Shown here: positions 1,575 to 13,653 of the stretch, one piece after another
Position numbering within the stretch: position 1 is the first letter of the stretch
How the letters are laid out: every line of letters starts with the position of its first letter
From: Patescibacteria group bacterium
GTDB lineage: Bacteria; Patescibacteriota; Microgenomatia; UBA8517
Length of the DNA stretch: 64,000 nucleotides
Assembly: GCA_041499035.1 (NCBI GenBank)
Contig: JBGQJK010000003.1
Span: forward strand, 1,953 to 65,952
Direction of reading: 5' to 3'
Notes under the pieces: model-generated
Told to the model about the DNA's origin: nothing
The model's input: only the letters and a program-made list of their open reading frames with translations
Database searches by the model: none
Program-made: the position numbers and the translations under genes

Positions 1575-3395
1575 TTAGTCTACTTCCGGTAGTTTGATAG
1601 GATGAAGAGTCCCACCCTCATCATTTGTCAGCTGCCTAAGAAACTCTTTCAGATTTGCTGATGCAACACAAGTAACACTGTCGCTTCCGCCGTAGTAAAC
1701 TAAGAGCTGCCCATCCACTATTACTGCGCCGCAGGGGTAGACTACACCGAACTTTGCCAATCCATTTTCATAGTGTTCCGTAGGTTCGATTATGGGGTGA
1801 TTGCTTCTGTGAAGAATTTTGGTCGGGTCATTTAGGTCCAGTAGCATTGCGCCGACTTTATACTTTGATGAATCTGCCTCGCCAACACCCTGATAAATTA
1901 AAAGCCAGCCCTCGTCGGTTTTTATAGGAGGCGCGCCGGTTCCGATTTTACGGCTGTCCCACATATTTGGTCTGGGTTTAATTGCAAACTCGCCTTTTAA
2001 CCAGCTCTTGCCGTCGAATTCCAGATTATCCACAAAGTCTATGAGAATGTTCGGATAAATTCTATGGAAGATTACGTATTTACCGTTAATCTTTTCCGGG
2101 AGAAGACATCCGCTTTTGTCTATTATCCCCGGTGGGGAAATAAGAACGGGCCTGCTCCAGAGAAAATTGCGGTTAAGGAAGTTTTCTAAAAGTATTGAAG
2201 TCATGGCGAGCCTGGGTGGTTCCCAACCGTTAAAAGCCACATAAATCATATAAAGTCTGTCGCCAATTTTTGTAATCCTGGGATCCTCGCAGCCGCCATA
2301 GCCGCCACCCGACATGTATTTTTTGGCAGTTTCGTATGAAGCCTGTTTGCCTTTGACTTCAAAAGGCTCGCTGGCTGCGTATATCGGCTCTTTAAGCCTG
2401 CCGCCGAAGTTTATGCCGTCACAGCTTTCCGCATACCCGAGAACCGAAATGTAGTCCCTGCCTACCGCGCGGTAAATCAGGTAGACTTTGCCATCTTCAT
2501 AAAATGCGGCAGGATTAAAAGCGGCTTCGTTTTCCCAGGCATTTTCCGCGCGTGGCACCAGAACGGGGTTTGCCGGATGTTTGTCGAGTTTATAATGATG
2601 ATTTTCGTGTGCAGGTTCGGACTCAAAAACCGGGTAGGTGATTAAAAATATCCCCACGTCCGAAATGTTCCAATAGCCCAAAAGTTTGCCTTCAAAATAG
2701 ACGCAGCCAAGACAAGTTACCTCGTGGTCTTTCCACTCACCGGGCTCTTGCCAGAGCGAAGTTTTGGTCTGCCAGAGGATTTTGTCGGGACTATTTATGT
2801 CGAAGCACATTGCTTTGGAGTCGAGTGAACTAGTATGGTAAATAACAAAAATGCCCTGGGAGGTTTTGATAACGAAATCAATATAATAATTCTTATCTTC
2901 CGGGAGATCCACTTTCTGAAACTTCCAGCTCTCTCCGTCTTTTGACACCCCAAAAGAAATACTCTTTCCTCCCGTGTACATGACATAATTGCCCTTATGT
3001 TTATAGTCGCTGACTATTACTCCGCCAGAAATACCCTCAGGATTTTTTGTGAAAGTATCCCAGTTTGACAAGCTTAGCGAGGACGCAAAAAATGATCCGC
3101 TTTGTTTTGCATCTACTAATTGGTAGTCCAATAGAAGATTGCCGTTAAACCTGCTTATCTTTAGACCGGAGAGTTTGCCGGGGTCAACCCTTTTTTTATC
3201 GCCGTCCCGGATTGTAAAAACAGATTCGCTCCGTTCGAACTCAAAACCGTCTTTGCTTTCGGCAACACAAACAGCATTGGGAGTATTCGAAGAATAGTAA
3301 TAGAGTGAAATCTTATCGCCGTGCGAATTTACACCCAAACCGCGGATTCTGGCATCTTTAATTGCACCTTTAGGTGGAATTTTTATTTTAGTCAT
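1575..3395 (-). CDS. GH130/DUF377-like protein with two tandem modules (beta-mannoside phosphorylase/glycosidase family)
   Basis: The 616-aa ORF has FNPAAFYEDGKVYLIYRA, GCEDPRITKIGDRLYMIYVA and GAMLLDLNDP motifs, repeated in two halves. The track start at 3425 is a GTG; the first ATG (MTKIKIPP) at 3395 is the more likely start. Confidence 0.7.
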   Translation of the reverse strand: MTKIKIPPKGAIKDARIRGLGVNSHGDKISLYYYSSNTPNAVCVAESKDGFEFERSESVFTIRDGDKKRVDPGKLSGLKISRFNGNLLLDYQLVDAKQSGSFFASSLSLSNWDTFTKNPEGISGGVIVSDYKHKGNYVMYTGGKSISFGVSKDGESWKFQKVDLPEDKNYYIDFVIKTSQGIFVIYHTSSLDSKAMCFDINSPDKILWQTKTSLWQEPGEWKDHEVTCLGCVYFEGKLLGYWNISDVGIFLITYPVFESEPAHENHHYKLDKHPANPVLVPRAENAWENEAAFNPAAFYEDGKVYLIYRAVGRDYISVLGYAESCDGINFGGRLKEPIYAASEPFEVKGKQASYETAKKYMSGGGYGGCEDPRITKIGDRLYMIYVAFNGWEPPRLAMTSILLENFLNRNFLWSRPVLISPPGIIDKSGCLLPEKINGKYVIFHRIYPNILIDFVDNLEFDGKSWLKGEFAIKPRPNMWDSRKIGTGAPPIKTDEGWLLIYQGVGEADSSKYKVGAMLLDLNDPTKILHRSNHPIIEPTEHYENGLAKFGVVYPCGAVIVDGQLLVYYGGSDSVTCVASANLKEFLRQLTNDEGGTLHPIKLPEVD

Positions 3396-3576
3396 ATATA
3401 TTTGGTTTTGACCACAAAACACCACGTCAAAAAGAAGTGTCGATCGAAGCGGCAGTTAGGCATGTTTTTATTTATTAATTTTTCTTCTTATATTAGATTA
3501 TCAAATTATTATAAACCTAATTGAGAAAGAGTTGAAAGGTGCAAAATATGGAAACTAATCAAGTTAATAAATATGT

Positions 3577-8690: not shown

Positions 8691-9392
8691 TTATTTGAGG
8701 GTTTTGGTGAACTCAAAGACTTTATCCAGATTGCCGTCAACTATTACTTCCAGGTTGCCCCAGTTTTTACCTAAGCGGTGATCTGTGATTCTATCTTGTG
8801 GGTAATTATAAGTACGGATTTTCTCACTTCTCATTCCGCGGCCGATTACTGACCTGTAGCCTGCAATTGTTCTTAGTTTTTCTTCCTCTAGTCTCTCCCA
8901 AAGCTTAGACCTAAGAAGGGCCAGCGCTATCTGTCTGTTTTGTTCCTGGAAACGTTCCTCGCGTGCTTGAACAATGATTCCGGTGGGTTTGTGGGTGAGC
9001 CTCACTGCTGTAGCTACTTTATTTACATTTTGCCCGCCGTGTCCGCCACCCGTTGTGAATTGCCACTCAAGGTCCTGTGGGTTAATTTGAACGTCGGTTT
9101 CGCGAACTTCGGGCAGAACCGCTACAGTGGCTGTTGAAGTATGGATTCTGCCTCTTTTTTCTGTAGCCGGAACTCTTTGGACCCGATGTACCCCAGACTC
9201 ATTTTTCAGAGCATCGAATGCTCCGGGGCCGCTAAACCTTACGGTTTTATCATCCAGTTGAATAGTTTTCCAGCCCTTTTTTTGGCCGTAGCGCAAGTAC
9301 ATCCTAAGGAGGTCGTTGCCCCAAAGTTTAGCTTCATCGCCGCCTGTGGCACCACGGATTTCGAGGTATGCGACTTGGTTGTTGTTTTCCAT
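8691..9392 (-). CDS. prfA: Peptide chain release factor 1 homologue lacking the N-terminal domain 1 (domains 2-4 only)
   Basis: [18 protein letters not shown] (the RF1-type PAT tripeptide motif), GGQ ([25 protein letters not shown]), and the C-terminal [14 protein letters not shown]. The ORF is 233 aa against ~360 for canonical RF1. Only 9 nt separate its start from the upstream rpmE stop. Confidence 0.8.
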
Positions 9393-9710: not shown

Positions 9711-10625
9711 CTAGGAATTATACCTTTTCTTCTTGAACTCCGCAAGGAAGACGCCGATGGCTATTATCACTGAGCCGATTATAAAGGGAGGTGTGATTTT
9801 CTCTTTCAACCAGAGAATTGAGAGCGGAATGCCAAAAATAGGGTACAGGTAGGCAAAAAGCCCGGCTTCACTGGTTTCTATCGACTTTATGGCCTTGAAC
9901 CAAAGATAATAGCCTAAAGTCCCGGAAAGGATGGCCATATAAAATACACCTAAGTGGTAGGGGAATGGGGTCGTGTATATGGTATGTAGTATATTGGCAG
10001 GCGACTGTGAAAAGAGGAGGACTGGGAGAGTTGTTGCGAACCCGACCATGAAGGAAATGTGGGTGGAGGCAAGGGCTTCAACTTCTTTTCTAAGAATAAC
10101 CTTTTCCAAAATCACGTTTGCGGTTCCGATAAGCACCGAGCCAAAAACCAGAATATTGCCGATAAGGCCGGAAAGTCCGTCATTAGTTTTTAGTGCCGGC
10201 TCAATCACTGCGATGAGGGTTCCGGCAAGCGCGATCAGGATCCCAATCGTTTCCCTTCTGGTTACATGCTCTTTAAGGAAAAATACGCCCGCAACAACGA
10301 TGGTAATTGGGGCAATTGCCGAAATTAAATTTAGATCAATCGAGGTTGTACGTTCGGCTCCCCAAAAAAGTAGGAGAAGGGAAGCAGTTGTGCCCAAGAA
10401 GCCGTTAAATATGGTTAGCCAAAGTATTTTTGGATTTTTAGGAAATTTCGAAATTCCAAGAATAAAAAAGGGAATTGCTACTATTGTTGAGATTAGGAAC
10501 CTGTAGGTTAAAAAAACCGGAGTAGTAAAGCCCCCGAGAGTGTATTTAATAACAACTCCGGCCACACCCCAAATCACAGAAACAATAAGTAGTTGAATGT
10601 AAGCGCGAACTCGAGCAGGATTCAT
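9711..10625 (-). CDS. EamA/DMT-superfamily transporter
   Basis: A 10-TM hydrophobic profile with two EamA-like halves. Confidence 0.75.
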   Translation of the reverse strand: MNPARVRAYIQLLIVSVIWGVAGVVIKYTLGGFTTPVFLTYRFLISTIVAIPFFILGISKFPKNPKILWLTIFNGFLGTTASLLLLFWGAERTTSIDLNLISAIAPITIVVAGVFFLKEHVTRRETIGILIALAGTLIAVIEPALKTNDGLSGLIGNILVFGSVLIGTANVILEKVILRKEVEALASTHISFMVGFATTLPVLLFSQSPANILHTIYTTPFPYHLGVFYMAILSGTLGYYLWFKAIKSIETSEAGLFAYLYPIFGIPLSILWLKEKITPPFIIGSVIIAIGVFLAEFKKKRYNS

Positions 10626-11504
10626 TTAGATTAGGTCGATAATTCGGTCAATTCCAAAGGAAAATCCGACTGCAGGAATTGGGCGGCCTGCAAACATTCC
10701 GATCAAATTGTCATATCTCCCGCCACCCCCAACCGAAAGACTGTTGGGAGTTTTATCAAGTTTTAATTCAAAAATAGTTGATGTGTAATAATCTAATCCT
10801 CTCGCAATATAGGGGTTGAATGTAAAATCACGTCCTTCTTCAAATTTTGCCTCAGAAAGAGCATAAAAAATTTTGTCGAGTCTATTGGGTTTTGCGGCTG
10901 TTTCCAGGTTATTTAGATTGGGAACAGCTTTTAGAACTTCGTCGCGTCCGATCTTGTCAATTTTATCAATTGTTCTAACTTCTTCCGCCGTAAAGTTCCA
11001 CTCATCAAATATCGACCTGTCATTAATCTGTAAAATTGCATCGCCAAGATCCAGTTCCCGCGCACTTTCGATTGCTGCTGAAATTACTTTGACATCAGAC
11101 TCGATTTCAGAAGAGCCTACAGTATCAAAATCAAACTGCGTGAACTCGCGTCTCCTGCCTTTTTGGGGATTTTCGCCTCTAAAAACCTGACCTATTTGGT
11201 ACCTACTAAAAGTTGGACTAAGAAGGCCGAGATTATTGGCAACAAAGCGGGCCAGAGGAACGGTTAAATCGTATCTTAAGGCTAATTTACGGCCTCCTTT
11301 GTCGGTGAGTTGGTAAATCAATTTCTCGTCTTCACCATATTTTCCCAATAATGTTTCTGCAAACTCGAGAGTAGGAGTTTCCAGAGGCTCAAAGCCATAT
11401 TTTTCAAGCACGGGAACAATGGCGTTTACCATTAAACGTCTCTTCTTGGCTTCGTCAGGCATAATATCTCCAAAGCCTTTAGCTGTAACCGGCCCTTTTC
11501 TCAT
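10626..11504 (-). CDS. Histidyl-tRNA synthetase-like class II catalytic domain with no anticodon-binding domain (HisS core or HisZ-like)
   Basis: HisRS motif 1 (YGFEPLETPTLEFAETL), a motif 2 region (KLALRYDLTVPLAR), motif 3 (GGGGRYDNLIGMF...GFSFGIDR). The ORF ends about 100 aa earlier than canonical HisS. Confidence 0.75.
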   Translation of the reverse strand: MRKGPVTAKGFGDIMPDEAKKRRLMVNAIVPVLEKYGFEPLETPTLEFAETLLGKYGEDEKLIYQLTDKGGRKLALRYDLTVPLARFVANNLGLLSPTFSRYQIGQVFRGENPQKGRRREFTQFDFDTVGSSEIESDVKVISAAIESARELDLGDAILQINDRSIFDEWNFTAEEVRTIDKIDKIGRDEVLKAVPNLNNLETAAKPNRLDKIFYALSEAKFEEGRDFTFNPYIARGLDYYTSTIFELKLDKTPNSLSVGGGGRYDNLIGMFAGRPIPAVGFSFGIDRIIDLI

Positions 11505-12049
11505 AGTTTCTCCTCTCTTCTATTATCGATGATAGCTAGTAAAAGCTCAACCGCTTCTTTCGGTGTCTTGGCTTTTTCTATCTTTATACTTTTCCTTTCA
11601 TCTAAGAATTTTCCCGCGAATTTTTTGCCATAGCCATCAAAGTTTGTTAGAGCAACCATCGGAATTTTATTTCTGTAAGCAACAATCATCTCTTGCAAAG
11701 TTCCCGCGCCACCACCGAGAATAATAACTCCATCGCTAGAAAGTATCAGAGGAGGTGTATCTCCACCTGTTTCAGAATTTGTTACTATTTCCACATTAAT
11801 GTATTTGTTTGACACATTTCTCAGATTTCCTCTAACCACACCCACAGTTGTTCCATTCTTGGATATTGCCCCTTTAGCCACGGATTCCATTATTCCGCTC
11901 TTTCCGCCGCAAAAAACAATACAACCTTTTTGTGCGAGGAGTTTACCGATGGTTCCTGCGGCTTTGTATACTTTAGGGCCGGGCTTTTTGTATTTATATT
12001 CCTCGGGTCCGGCCGGACCAATAACGGCGATTTGTAATTTTTTATTCAT
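11501..12049 (-). CDS. LOG-family protein (TIGR00730 Rossmann fold; cytokinin riboside 5'-monophosphate phosphoribohydrolase-like)
   Basis: GGKSGIMESVAKGA and GGGAGTLQEM motifs. Confidence 0.8.
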   Translation of the reverse strand: MNKKLQIAVIGPAGPEEYKYKKPGPKVYKAAGTIGKLLAQKGCIVFCGGKSGIMESVAKGAISKNGTTVGVVRGNLRNVSNKYINVEIVTNSETGGDTPPLILSSDGVIILGGGAGTLQEMIVAYRNKIPMVALTNFDGYGKKFAGKFLDERKSIKIEKAKTPKEAVELLLAIIDNRREEKL

Positions 12050-12863
12050 TTTTTAGTTTTCTGAGCGTTTCAAGGATACCATTAAAAGTGTTTAAATCAT
12101 CAACGTATTTTTCCCTGTACCTATCAACTACTATTTTAGATTTTTCTCCATCCCCGATAAAGGACGAAAGGCTGTTATTGGCAGGTATGCCACTCGAACC
12201 TTGATATAAAACATTTGTTGTAACACTTATATATCCAGGTAAGCTGCTCTTAAAGATATTTGGGGCCTGTCTAGGTTTAGCTTGGAGAGGGGATAGAGTC
12301 ATCCATGTGGCTGCATACCATTCCAAATCATCCCTTGGGTCTAAAAATGAACGAACTGACTGTGCAGTCGAACCGCTCATTAAGACGTCGTCGATTACAA
12401 CACAAGAGTTAAGTTTTGAAGGGAGCCTCTCTCTAACAACATTTCTTCCTGTGGTAACGTCGACTCTATTCACGGACATTTTTTCACTCAAAATCCGTCT
12501 AACGTCCAGGTCAAGCCAACTAAAAAATTTGAAGATCTCAGGCCTTATAAGCTGCTTTACTGTTTGGGCTCCGTTACCCGGGAAAATCAAAATACTTTTC
12601 TCCGGATCAAGTTTTTCGAGAATGCTATCCAATCTGTTATTTAGTGTTATTCCGAGCCCTTCGGCACTATAGAAATAGGTAAAACCTTTACAGGATATAA
12701 TGAAGAGTTCAACAAGTTCTTTAACTTGATCCCCATTTTCTGGGTTTCTAAATGCCACGTCATCAATACCCAGGCGCTCTCTGGAGTTATCTATAAGTTT
12801 AAACTCAGAGTAGTCTAGATTAGGGAACCTTTCCCTTATTAGTTGTTCGTATTCTTTTCCCAT
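12042..12863 (-). CDS. Phosphoribosyltransferase-domain protein (type I PRTase PRPP-binding motif); function unknown
   Basis: VVIDDVLMSGSTAQSV PRPP-binding loop; it overlaps the LOG gene by 8 nt, so the two form an operon. Confidence 0.6.
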   Translation of the reverse strand: MGKEYEQLIRERFPNLDYSEFKLIDNSRERLGIDDVAFRNPENGDQVKELVELFIISCKGFTYFYSAEGLGITLNNRLDSILEKLDPEKSILIFPGNGAQTVKQLIRPEIFKFFSWLDLDVRRILSEKMSVNRVDVTTGRNVVRERLPSKLNSCVVIDDVLMSGSTAQSVRSFLDPRDDLEWYAATWMTLSPLQAKPRQAPNIFKSSLPGYISVTTNVLYQGSSGIPANNSLSSFIGDGEKSKIVVDRYREKYVDDLNTFNGILETLRKLKNE

Positions 12864-13113
12864 AAAAAAACCTCGTTCACGTCCACAACCCTACGGTTAT
12901 GAAGGAACGAGGGTCTTAATTAAAGGCTTTTGCCATTAAAAAAGGACCTCCGCGGTCCCATCCTTTTTCCCTAAATATTACTCTAGGGCTCTTGGTCCAT
13001 CTCTACTTTGCGGTGACAATGGTTAGTATCTTTTTACGCTTTTCCCTGCGTCCTCGATTTTGCGAGGCTCCTCGTGTCGCGTGACTGACACTCAAACGGA
13101 TTTATTCGACTAA
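12864..13113 (-). promoter_or_regulatory. ~250-nt 5' leader of the PRTase-LOG-hisS-like operon. It contains an intrinsic attenuator terminator and an SD-sequestering hairpin, making it a candidate riboswitch or attenuator.
   Basis: On the minus strand the order is consensus promoter, ~150 nt, GGACC-GCGGA-GGUCC followed by U6 (12958-12938), ~45 nt, then CCUCGUUC-26 nt-GAACGAGG followed by U7 and AUG. The GAGG Shine-Dalgarno lies inside the 3' arm of the last hairpin. Confidence 0.45.
12938..12958 (-). terminator. Intrinsic terminator hairpin (GGACC/GGUCC stem, U6) inside the leader
   Basis: The plus strand reads aaaaaa-ggacc-tccgc-ggtcc, which is the reverse complement. Confidence 0.55.
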
Positions 13114-13119
13114 GTAGGA

Positions 13120-13147
13120 ATTATAGCAGGAAAAGGTTGGTTGTCAA
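13120..13147 (-). promoter_or_regulatory. Consensus sigma70-type promoter: TTGACA, 16-nt spacer, extended −10 TGcTATAAT
   Basis: The reverse complement of 13120-13147 is ttgacaaccaaccttttcctgctataat. The −35 overlaps the stop codon of the upstream GNAT gene. Confidence 0.6.
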
Positions 13148-13653
13148 ATTTTGAGTGTGTAAACATATTCGTCCCTGTAGCTGCCGTCGGGGTATTTTAC
13201 GCTCTCGGGGAGTGTGGCTACTTTCTTAAATCCGAATTTTTCGTACAGATTGGTGGCGGGGGAGTTGCCGGAATTTACAAAAAGCTGGACCTCTTCGACT
13301 TCCGAAGCCATTTTGATCCTGTCGATCAAGTATTTCATCAACCTGCTTCCGACTCCCTTTTCCCGTTCACTCACGGCTACGCAAAAGTCCGAGAGATTTA
13401 CTATGTGTTTTTTGTTCGGCAGTGAGTTACTAGCCATAAGCGCGTAGGCGGTCAAAGTGTCATCGTTAAATAGACCATAATAGCCAAAACCTGGGAAGTG
13501 TGACCAGTAATTAAGCCTGTCTGCAAAAAAACTAAGGGGAGCGCCATCTTCTACCTCAAAGTTGGAAAGCCAGGCTTTCGGATCTGCCCTTAGTGTTTCA
13601 AGGCGCAGTTTTTTAAACTCGGCAGCATCGCTTTCGTAGAGAAGCCTGATCAT
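13144..13653 (-). CDS. GNAT-family N-acetyltransferase
   Basis: The acetyl-CoA-binding motif region VSEREKGVGSRLMKYLIDR. Confidence 0.8.
   Translation of the reverse strand: MIRLLYESDAAEFKKLRLETLRADPKAWLSNFEVEDGAPLSFFADRLNYWSHFPGFGYYGLFNDDTLTAYALMASNSLPNKKHIVNLSDFCVAVSEREKGVGSRLMKYLIDRIKMASEVEEVQLFVNSGNSPATNLYEKFGFKKVATLPESVKYPDGSYRDEYVYTLKI

Follow-up and report, generated by a model that had tools for sequence, protein, structure and literature searches.

What controls the operon X-SLOG-hisS-EamA of a Patescibacteria group bacterium is the question raised by the leader of about 250 nt that precedes it on the minus strand of contig JBGQJK010000003.1 (GenBank assembly GCA_041499035.1). The stretch analysed here comprises 64,000 nt of this contig (positions 1,953 to 65,952) and is called the window throughout. 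The leader has a consensus promoter and two hairpin-plus-U-run elements, and an earlier reading of the DNA without database searches (the sequence-only reading) had taken it for a two-stage control of transcription and translation. We propose that it is very probably a T-box riboswitch that is specific for tRNA-His, has a very short Stem I and switches by means of a terminator. Promoter and operon are located as follows:

13120..13147, minus strand: sigma-70 promoter with the -35 box TTGACA (13147-13142), a 16-nt spacer and the extended -10 box TGcTATAAT (13128-13120)
9711..12863, minus strand: operon X-SLOG-hisS-EamA, whose genes overlap or abut

The promoter, the leader length and both hairpins with their U-runs are present on the minus strand as the sequence-only reading had described them; the distance of the first U-run has to be corrected, its end being about 175 nt rather than about 150 nt away from the predicted start of transcription near 13115-13111. 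The promoter is the single 12/12 match within the 9-17 kb region in a promoter scan, and its -35 box overlaps the TGA stop codon (13146-13144) of the upstream GNAT gene. A perfect TTGACA located 16-18 nt 5' of a near-consensus -10 box (0-2 mismatches) was found in 29 of 68 relatives, 27 of which have at most one mismatch in the -10 box. In the relatives this box mostly ends 30-39 nt before the specifier, and that of the window ends at -33. The conserved promoter position across relatives bears out the view of a regulatory leader with a real promoter. The leader fold is more stable than that of shuffled sequences (z = -4.43, 0/200), and the features of the leader are beyond chance: dozens of independent loci have the promoter and the two hairpins together with the structure between them.

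At gathering thresholds Rfam has no match to the leader, the sole match in the window being a tRNA-Leu elsewhere, and no T-box match in 17 loci of the family. A permissive scan of 12800-13200, a check that had been suggested from the sequence, returned the T-box leader as the sole family. This match scores 26.6 bits (E = 3.9e-4) and spans the whole model (positions 1-219), with 7 nt of the window leader in place of 75 model positions of the distal Stem I; no other Rfam family matches the region even at E up to 10. An independent Rfam T-box match of the same kind was obtained for one relative (L002; fetched loci are designated by L numbers). The element that gives the class its name is located as follows:

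12951..12964, minus strand: T-box sequence AGGAUGGGACCGCG, a 13/14 match to the consensus AGGGUGGNACCGCG

The 14-nt consensus AGGGUGGNACCGCG is given here as quoted in PMC11297988. Within the T-box bulge, UGGG (12960-12957) is the complement of the 3' end CCCA of a tRNA-His with discriminator C73. This discriminator is typical of bacterial tRNA-His. The sequence-only reading had noted the resemblance to a T-box, distrusted it and left the sensor class open as possibly new; Rfam alignment, 14-mer and covariation indicate that the T-box is the answer and the class a known one. Its further options of tRNA sensing and a histidine-related ligand agree with the CAC specifier, the UGGG/C73 match and the his cargo. 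Apart from the Rfam threshold and the long Stem I of class I, every T-box hallmark of sequence and structure that we examined is found in the leader, and we hold its identity as a T-box with high confidence. From the 5' end to Stem III its anatomy is:

13069..13100, minus strand: ultrashort Stem I, with the base helix UCC (13100-13098) / GGA (13071-13069)
within 13069..13100, minus strand: flanks GUUUGA / GA of the Stem I GA-motif (K-turn-like)
13091-13087 / 13078-13074, minus strand: specifier hairpin GUGUC / GACAC with the loop AGUCACGC
13083-13081, minus strand: specifier codon CAC (His) in the terminal loop, followed by G, a purine
13052..13067, minus strand: Stem II hairpin CCUCG-CAAAAU-CGAGG; 5/5 pairs change on both sides
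13021..13050, minus strand: Stem IIA and linker, CGC (13050-13048) / GCG (13039-13037) with the loop AGGGAAAA
12997..13022, minus strand: extra lineage-specific stem CCAU...AUGG between IIA/B and Stem III, with the conserved internal loop UGUC / G(G)AG
12967..12993, minus strand: AAGAG (12993-12989), Stem III CCCUAGA (12988-12982) / UUUAGGG (12975-12969; RNAfold) and AA

Relatives of the leader were obtained by scanning one-genome-per-species and metagenome collections for the core AAAGGATGGGACCGCGG, which yielded 61 and at least 120 loci, respectively. T-box context was present around 95 matches, at least 83 of them non-identical; the rest, about half of 181, had arisen by chance or within coding sequence of unrelated bacteria and were removed. 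Counts out of 83 refer to the non-identical members among the matches listed, and UGGG is fixed by the search pattern. The relatives come mostly from Microgenomates-type metagenome assemblies of the Candidate Phyla Radiation (CPR), and their record titles name Gottesman-, Levy-, Davies-, Ames- and Woesebacteria as well as Microgenomates, Parcubacteria, Paceibacterota and Patescibacteria groups. Several loci (L013-L019, L026, L028, L030, L032, L035, L038, L040, L047, L048 and L056) are titled "uncultured Gammaproteobacteria bacterium" (third-party annotation assemblies); on metagenome-assembled genomes (MAGs) with a CPR-type leader and CPR-like gene content these labels are probably wrong.

The members share one anatomy. 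Its 5' end consists of the conserved promoter, AAAGCGUUUGA, a covarying stem of 4-6 bp around the invariant loop (A)GUCACG(A/C), and GAGC; its middle of Stem II, Stem IIA with the pseudoknot to the linker, the extra stem (UGUC/GGAG) and AAGAG-Stem III-AA; and its 3' end of the T-box core, an antiterminator loop usually opening with UCCUUUUUU, then CCUCUCGUUCCUU and a long hairpin with a U-run. Covariation was measured on a MAFFT alignment of 33 sequences that was fitted to no structure, using a canonical T-box structure written by hand with the pseudoknot included. RNAalifold keeps 20 of 32 pairs of this alignment through double changes. The hand-written structure pairs 93.1% of the cells, compared with 33-46% if the partners are slid by 1-3 columns, and two-sided changes occur in 27 of its 40 pairs; its covariation score of 0.457 compares with at most 0.108 for the slid versions, and 0/500 shuffles reach any observed value. 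A model-fitted alignment of 76 sequences gives 94.0% paired cells and a score of 0.490. The covariance model built from the 33 sequences assigns 148 bits to the window copy, which is part of the seed, and finds about 105 full-length copies in the fetched loci. The comparison of orthologous leaders envisaged at the outset thus resulted in a recurrent leader whose fold is backed by covariation.

The single helices follow the same pattern. The loop AGUCACG is invariant while the specifier stem covaries, and helices 1 and 2 of Stem I show two-sided changes in 7/8 pairs in both the MAFFT and the model-fitted alignment. Stem I has no distal interdigitated T-loop platform: in at least 76 of the 83 members nothing lies above the specifier loop, and four long-Stem-I relatives are the exceptions. 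Covariation is found in 2/3 pairs of Stem IIA, and the linker 3' of it forms the IIA/B pseudoknot in the relatives, with two-sided changes in 4/4 pairs across the family (GUUG/CAAC, GCUU/AAGC, GGC/GCC). The extra stem shows two-sided changes in 6/8 pairs (MAFFT) and 7/8 pairs (model-fitted), with U-A and C-G (nearly) invariant inside its internal part. It is without counterpart in the Rfam T-box consensus, to which it aligns as a 44-nt insertion (alignment columns 108-147), and might take the place of the elbow contact that this Stem I lacks, or form an S-turn. Stem III is too variable in length for alignment and was folded separately, sequence by sequence; the region forms a single hairpin in 70 of 75 relatives, with 37 different outer stems between constant AAGAG and AA flanks. 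This part matches the RRRNG-Stem III-AA motif that has been described for T-box discriminator domains (PMC7778990).

The specificity of the leader for histidine is reflected by the genes that follow it. A tRNA-His(GUG) gene lies after 44 of the 83 members, within about 100-300 nt (one at 747 nt). In 32 cases the distance from the terminator U-run to the tRNA is 1-21 nt, and in 13 cases G-1 alone separates the two; tRNA-linked loci include L075, L092, L098, L049, L120 and L018. These adjacent genes encode G-1 in 44/44 cases and C73 in 43/44, as UGGG predicts. The protein cargo consists of hisS and EamA, or of the histidine biosynthesis operon (hisG-hisD-hisC-hisB) with HisG/HisG_C, histidinol dehydrogenase, HisC, PHP phosphatase and IGPD. 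Two His T-boxes were observed on different contigs of one MAG in two cases, L021 and L043 (CALRFD01) and L038 and L056 (CAYZZG01), thus suggesting a small tRNA-His regulon; the first open reading frames (ORFs) of L021 have sizes like those of a his biosynthesis operon, and the leader of L038 precedes X and hisS. In L002, two tandem T-box terminator hairpins are located at 1-66 and 226-470. The first, truncated by the end of the contig, is followed by an ORF of 65 aa, and the second element is apparently minimal, leading almost straight from an ultrashort Stem I (loop AUUCACAC) to Stem III without Stem II, IIA/B, extra stem or the first hairpin.

Elements with other specifiers, seen only inside loci fetched for the UGGG pattern, complement this picture. 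The Trp sister in L128 (5703-5420, minus strand) has the loop UGG and the bulge UGGU and is followed by tRNA-Trp(CCA) with discriminator A73. The Pro-specifier sister in L015 (5737-5450, minus strand) has the loop CCC and the bulge UGGU and precedes ornithine cyclodeaminase, and the Arg-specifier sister in L047 (6312-6570, plus strand) has the loop GUCGCGA (CGC) and the bulge UGGC and precedes an ORF without Pfam match. The three sister elements have the 5' domain in common with the His leaders; they change specifier, bulge and cargo together and are natural controls for the T-box logic. The Trp example is arranged as one unit:

L128 5347-5703, minus strand: Trp T-box and tRNA-Trp unit, a sister element upstream of the gene of its own ligand

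The position of a T-box leader directly 5' of the gene of its own ligand implies charge-dependent control of the transcription of this tRNA. In the Arg and Trp sisters, the Stem III position 5' of the T-box sequence is occupied by a hairpin with U6-8; this hairpin is terminator- or pause-like and may be equated with the glyQS pause at 138, a pause that PMC13001445 does not map to Stem III.

The output of the riboswitch is determined by the 3' part of the leader, in which two alternative structures compete for one strand:

12903..12964, minus strand: antiterminator with the helices A1 and A2 around the 7-nt bulge UGGGACC
12964-12961 / 12906-12903, minus strand: helix A1, AGGA / UCCU, invariant in the family
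12953-12945 / 12915-12907, minus strand: helix A2, GCGGAGGUC / GACCCUCGU, with one A·C mismatch
12864..12912, minus strand: start-proximal hairpin (T2), 5' arm CCUCGUUCCUUC... (from 12912, CCUCGUUCC...), 3' arm GAACGAGG (12878-12871) and U7 (12870-12864)

The antiterminator of the window reads AGGA[UGGGACC]GCGGAGGUC-(29-nt insert)-GACCCUCGU-UCCU, and its loop is the 29-nt insert, which carries a small hairpin GGC-AAAA-GCC (12934-12925). Helix A2 shows compensatory changes at 3/8 pairs, with 98.9% of the cells paired in the MAFFT alignment. For A1, RNAalifold pairs GGGA rather than AGGA with UCCU; both A1 strands are invariant, the data therefore cannot choose between the two pairings, and the canonical A1 was retained. 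The 5' arm of T2 is the 3' strand of the antiterminator, which makes both pairings mutually exclusive, and this shared strand identifies the start-proximal hairpin as the T-box terminator. The canonical counterpart is found in L002, with the antiterminator AGGA[UGGGACC]GCGGGAG-CAAC-CUCUCGU-UCCU, whose 3' strand is the 5' arm of a terminator with U6 and whose tRNA-His(GUG) gene follows directly; this arrangement shows T2 of the window to be the homologue of that terminator. The T2-equivalent hairpin with U5-8 is present in 77 of the 83 relatives, including those with a tRNA gene directly after it, and in 13 of the 44 tRNA-linked members the U-run is followed merely by G-1 and tRNA-His, with no ORF and no ribosome-binding site.

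T2 has a free energy of -24.3 kcal/mol, and the ATG at 12863 follows directly after U7. The sole GAGG Shine-Dalgarno element is located in the 3' arm of T2, 7 nt 5' of the ATG, and termination and occlusion of the Shine-Dalgarno element should thus reinforce each other. The label of an SD-sequestering hairpin falls short: the hairpin does bury GAGG, but it is primarily a canonical T-box terminator whose U-run is kept before tRNA genes. The state of minimum free energy, which comprises Stem III, the first hairpin (T1, below), the insert hairpin and T2, has -49.7 kcal/mol, and a constrained fold that forces the antiterminator with an unpaired bulge has -38.8 kcal/mol; the gap of about 11 kcal/mol would be what a bound tRNA would need to offset, as in other T-boxes. 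With high confidence T2 can be regarded as the regulated terminator.

These elements would work together as follows. Transcription would begin at the consensus promoter, and the nascent RNA would fold the small hairpin that exposes CAC in its terminal loop, beside Stem II, the IIA/B pseudoknot and the extra stem. The anticodon GUG of tRNA-His would pair with CAC, and the 3' CCCA of an uncharged tRNA with UGGG in the bulge, thereby stabilising A1 and A2 of the antiterminator. The strand CCUCGUUCCU would then be retained in the antiterminator and the strong terminator T2 blocked, so that RNA polymerase would enter X-SLOG-hisS-EamA with the GAGG ribosome-binding site free. With charged tRNA-His, or with none, T2 would form and transcription would halt at U7 before the start codon, and in transcripts escaping T2 the ribosome-binding site would be buried. 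The idea of a two-stage control survives insofar as the leader probably acts on both transcription and translation. Neither hairpin is a module of its own, however; they are alternative partners in the single expression platform of a T-box.

Several observations weigh against this interpretation. The score of 26.6 bits stays below the gathering threshold of RF00230 (93 bits), helix A2 of the window contains the A·C mismatch, and the pseudoknot pairing of the window is weak (GG with CU/CC). A tRNA-His gene of its own was not found within the 64 kb of the window, and C73 in the cognate tRNA is thus a prediction. The distal Stem I platform is regarded as generally required for transcriptional T-boxes (PMC7583486), and a purely transcriptional mode may thus be kinetically difficult for a Stem I that lacks it. 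The 5' arm of T1 is fixed by the search pattern, so that true two-sided covariation cannot show in this hairpin. Finally, we infer tRNA binding, termination and read-through themselves from sequence.

The first hairpin requires a separate explanation:

12938..12959, minus strand: hairpin T1, GGGACC-GCGGA-GGUCCU (12959-12943) with a U-run (U6 to 12938), flagged by a terminator scan

T1 had been read as a textbook attenuator. As the main switch this designation does not hold, and T1 is rather an extra hairpin formed from the T-box bulge inside the antiterminator loop. Its 5' arm GGGACC is the tRNA-acceptor-binding part of the bulge, and its 3' arm GGUCC(U) lies within the A2 strand and the loop of the antiterminator; T1 must hence compete with binding of the tRNA acceptor end, and its formation is mutually exclusive with tRNA acceptor binding (GGG) and with helix A2 (GG). 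The free energy of T1 is -9.6 kcal/mol in the window and ranges from -7 to -12.6 kcal/mol in the family. A U-run of at least five is present at this place in 77 of the 83 members, preceded by a hairpin of at least 5 bp in about 75, and the ortholog L004 carries the same element. The 3' arm occurs in at least six versions (GGUCCU, GCGGUCU, GGUCU, GGUCUCU, GCGGUUCU, GGCCCA), each of which still pairs with the invariant core, in a register that is slightly shifted from one version to the next. Of the four canonical long-Stem-I His T-boxes from the scan, three have no U-run at the T1 place; in the fourth, L014, U5 is present and the hairpin absent. The helix AAAAAGGA:UCCUUUUU was considered as an antiterminator of T1 and rejected as negligible (-1.3 kcal/mol).

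T1 may act as an early checkpoint, namely, as a weak terminator, a programmed pause or both, which the polymerase would meet directly after transcribing the T-box motif. For B. subtilis glyQS it has been reported that a pause at 178 promotes capture of the tRNA 3' end (PMC13001445), and the position of T1 corresponds to this pause. The delay would let a slow-binding T-box without platform capture its tRNA; this is the least certain step of the proposed mechanism. The alternative that survives best takes T1 as a true first terminator, which would give two sequential tRNA-dependent termination checkpoints, with T1 blocked by the tRNA 3' end on UGGG, T2 by the completed antiterminator, and basal read-through lowered. 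The geometry of T1, a GC-rich stem of 5-8 bp directly followed by U5-9, is that of a terminator, its 5' arm coincides exactly with the GGG(ACC) that binds the acceptor end, and in several subclasses the antiterminator extends onto the 3' arm and U-run of T1 (e.g., GGUCUUUU/AAAAGACC; GGUC/GACC in the window). However, the stem is short and weak in the energy range given above, and the 3' strand of the antiterminator is unmade when the polymerase is at the U-run of T1, which leaves 4 bp with the tRNA end to oppose the hairpin. Moreover, the hairpin-U-run of the Arg and Trp sisters stands at the Stem III position without an evident tRNA-dependent alternative and is more pause-like. We thus regard two termination checkpoints as possible, yet on balance doubtful.

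It is unlikely that the same T-box acts mainly on translation, as the actinobacterial class with ultrashort Stem I does, with the start-proximal hairpin as Shine-Dalgarno sequestrator and the U-runs of minor importance in this organism. An ultrashort Stem I has so far been tied to translational T-boxes (PMC7583486; PMC11297988), and the sole GAGG of the window leader, buried in the T2 3' arm at 7 nt from the ATG, would suit this function. Yet the same hairpin is kept with U5-8 in 77 of the 83 relatives, and in 13 of them nothing but G-1 and the tRNA-His gene comes after the U-run, so that there is neither an ORF nor a ribosome-binding site to mask. The 3' arm has to contain GGAGG in order to pair with the conserved CCUCUCGUUCC, and it does so with or without a following ORF. 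It is the conservation of the U-runs before tRNA genes that makes a purely translational T-box unlikely.

Riboswitch leaders often accumulate as short terminated RNAs. A third explanation would make promoter and T1 an independent small RNA of about 175 nt, with the operon expressed separately or by incidental read-through, and could build on the strong promoter and the terminator-like site about 175 nt later. We consider it very improbable: the RNA has every T-box element, including the antiterminator 3' strand beyond T1, no promoter-like site was found between T1 and ATG in the promoter scan, and the cargo genes agree with the specifier across the family. The least credible alternative, a small-molecule riboswitch for phosphoribosyl pyrophosphate (PRPP), ppGpp, purine or histidine, as the sequence-only reading had considered, or a classical his-type leader-peptide attenuator, can draw on the PRTase-fold (phosphoribosyltransferase) and LOG-family proteins of the operon and on a long structured leader with terminators, and is dismissed with near certainty, given that only T-box matches were obtained from Rfam, that the conserved core is the T-box sequence, and that X and SLOG are absent from most members while hisS, the his operon or tRNA-His is present. 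The leader ORFs have at most 30 aa and at most one His codon, which rejects leader-peptide attenuation; a small-molecule riboswitch was rejected on the lack of any other Rfam family and on X and SLOG not being conserved cargo.

The tRNA-His-specific, terminator-based T-box that we favour would regulate the following genes:

12042-12863, minus strand: gene X, type-I PRTase fold (predicted structure and fold search)
11501-12049, minus strand: SLOG/LOG-family protein (Pfam; TIGR00725/LOG-family, below the NCBIfam cut-off)
10626-11504, minus strand: histidyl-tRNA synthetase (HisRS) catalytic core without anticodon-binding domain (Pfam 5e-45; NCBIfam hisS)
9711-10625, minus strand: EamA transporter (Pfam), directly abutting the HisRS gene

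Gene X is rare, with 8 proteins in 5.8 billion. It has no match in Pfam or NCBIfam, and a sequence search against PDB chains gave noise only. The predicted model (pLDDT 84, pTM 0.84) has a core that matches type-I PRTases (Foldseek probability 1.0, E about 2e-5) and thereby agrees with the fold that had been assigned to the first gene by eye; X also carries a PRPP-loop-like motif, VVIDDVLMSGST. The HisRS catalytic-domain protein recognised as the third gene is confirmed by Pfam and NCBIfam. This protein of 292 aa reaches 288.8 bits for hisS (cut-off 286.75) and has the motif 2/3 and GGGRYD signatures; an identity as HisZ was rejected, because the score for hisZ is 156, below its cut-off of 272, and that for hisS is sufficient. 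Similar HisRS forms of 293-304 aa were observed in L049, L120 and L048, the latter with a separate ORF of 146 aa after the short HisRS that could be the split-off domain.

The same gene order X-SLOG-hisS(-EamA) is present in L001 and L004, with full-length hisS. Both contigs end inside the leader, and L004 retains its 3' part including both hairpins. In L001 a Y1 (IS200/IS605-type) transposase gene is located at 2782-3468 between hisS and EamA of the otherwise syntenic operon. X is followed by a SLOG/LOG gene with overlapping stop and start in most loci and by an unidentified ORF of 265 aa in L013 and L038. The X-SLOG pair sits between His T-box and hisS in few lineages only. Elsewhere in the window, a release-factor-like ORF of 233 aa with the GGQ motif region is located at 8691-9392 on the minus strand, 3' of L31; it apparently lacks the N-terminal domain of full-length RF1/RF2.

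Comparison with known T-boxes places the leader between two classes. With the transcriptional T-boxes of Firmicutes (class I, RF00230; e.g., B. subtilis tyrS and glyQS, his-operon and hisS) it shares the 14-mer, the UGGN bulge reading the discriminator, the A1/A2 antiterminator opposed to a downstream intrinsic terminator, the purine after the specifier, the GA-motif at the base of Stem I, the IIA/B pseudoknot and the RRRNG-Stem III-AA motif, as well as the types of cargo, i.e., aminoacyl-tRNA synthetase, biosynthesis genes and transporter. In contrast to this class, the CPR leader has no Stem I above the specifier, no tRNA-elbow platform and a specifier loop of 7-9 nt, it has the extra stem and the bulge-built T1 in the antiterminator loop, its score of about 27 bits falls short of the cut-off of 93, its hosts are CPR/Patescibacteria, and the first regulated gene is the cognate tRNA in about half of the members. 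With the translational T-boxes of Actinobacteria (Mycobacterium ileS; TBDB class II) it has in common the truncated Stem I with the specifier on top, an alternative hairpin that hides the Shine-Dalgarno element, as in the window, and presumably the dependence on Stem II and IIA/B instead of elbow contact. However, the alternative hairpin of the CPR leader is a long stem with U5-8 that is conserved before tRNA genes, which makes transcription termination the output, not Shine-Dalgarno sequestration alone. Phylum and amino acids (His, also Trp, Pro and Arg) are different, and T1 and the extra stem are added.

Two further systems resemble T1 in part. "Stem Sa" of the staphylococcal glyS T-box (PMC9177973) is likewise a lineage-specific insertion in the antiterminator/terminator domain; the likeness is taken from the description of that insertion, and the CPR insertion differs in that it opens with a U-run and completes a terminator-like bulge hairpin. 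In B. subtilis glyQS (PMC13001445), the 178 pause is located just after the T-box motif, as is the U-run of T1 in CPR; the glyQS pauses are not described as conserved hairpin-plus-U-run modules, and pausing in CPR is a prediction only. TBDB gathered class I with the Rfam model and ran the class II model on Actinobacteria and class I hits only (PMC7778990). A full-text literature search, whose coverage is incomplete, returned no paper joining T-box with CPR, Patescibacteria, Microgenomates or Parcubacteria, and no description of a T-box upstream of a tRNA gene.

The leader belongs to an unannotated CPR subclass of T-boxes. Whether this subclass unites three linked properties, namely, termination despite an ultrashort Stem I, a bulge-built checkpoint and control of its own tRNA, is a tentative proposal to which we give slightly less than an even chance. 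Such a subclass would run against the published view that an elbow-docking platform is generally needed for transcriptional T-boxes, a platform for which the T1 checkpoint would compensate, and the CPR family would be a natural counter-example to the long Stem I demanded of transcriptional T-boxes. The family shows that T-boxes are widespread in CPR bacteria and are missed there by curated models, and with about 190 nt the CPR T-box offers a compact tRNA sensor for structural work. The X-SLOG-hisS-EamA operon is predicted to be induced when tRNA-His is uncharged, and T-box control would tie X, a rare PRTase-fold protein, and the LOG-family protein to histidine or tRNA-His physiology. Where a T-box lies directly 5' of the gene of its cognate tRNA, this tRNA would regulate itself according to its charging state: if true, the charging ratio of a tRNA (tRNA-His and at least one tRNA-Trp) would feed back on the synthesis of the same tRNA plus its synthetase.

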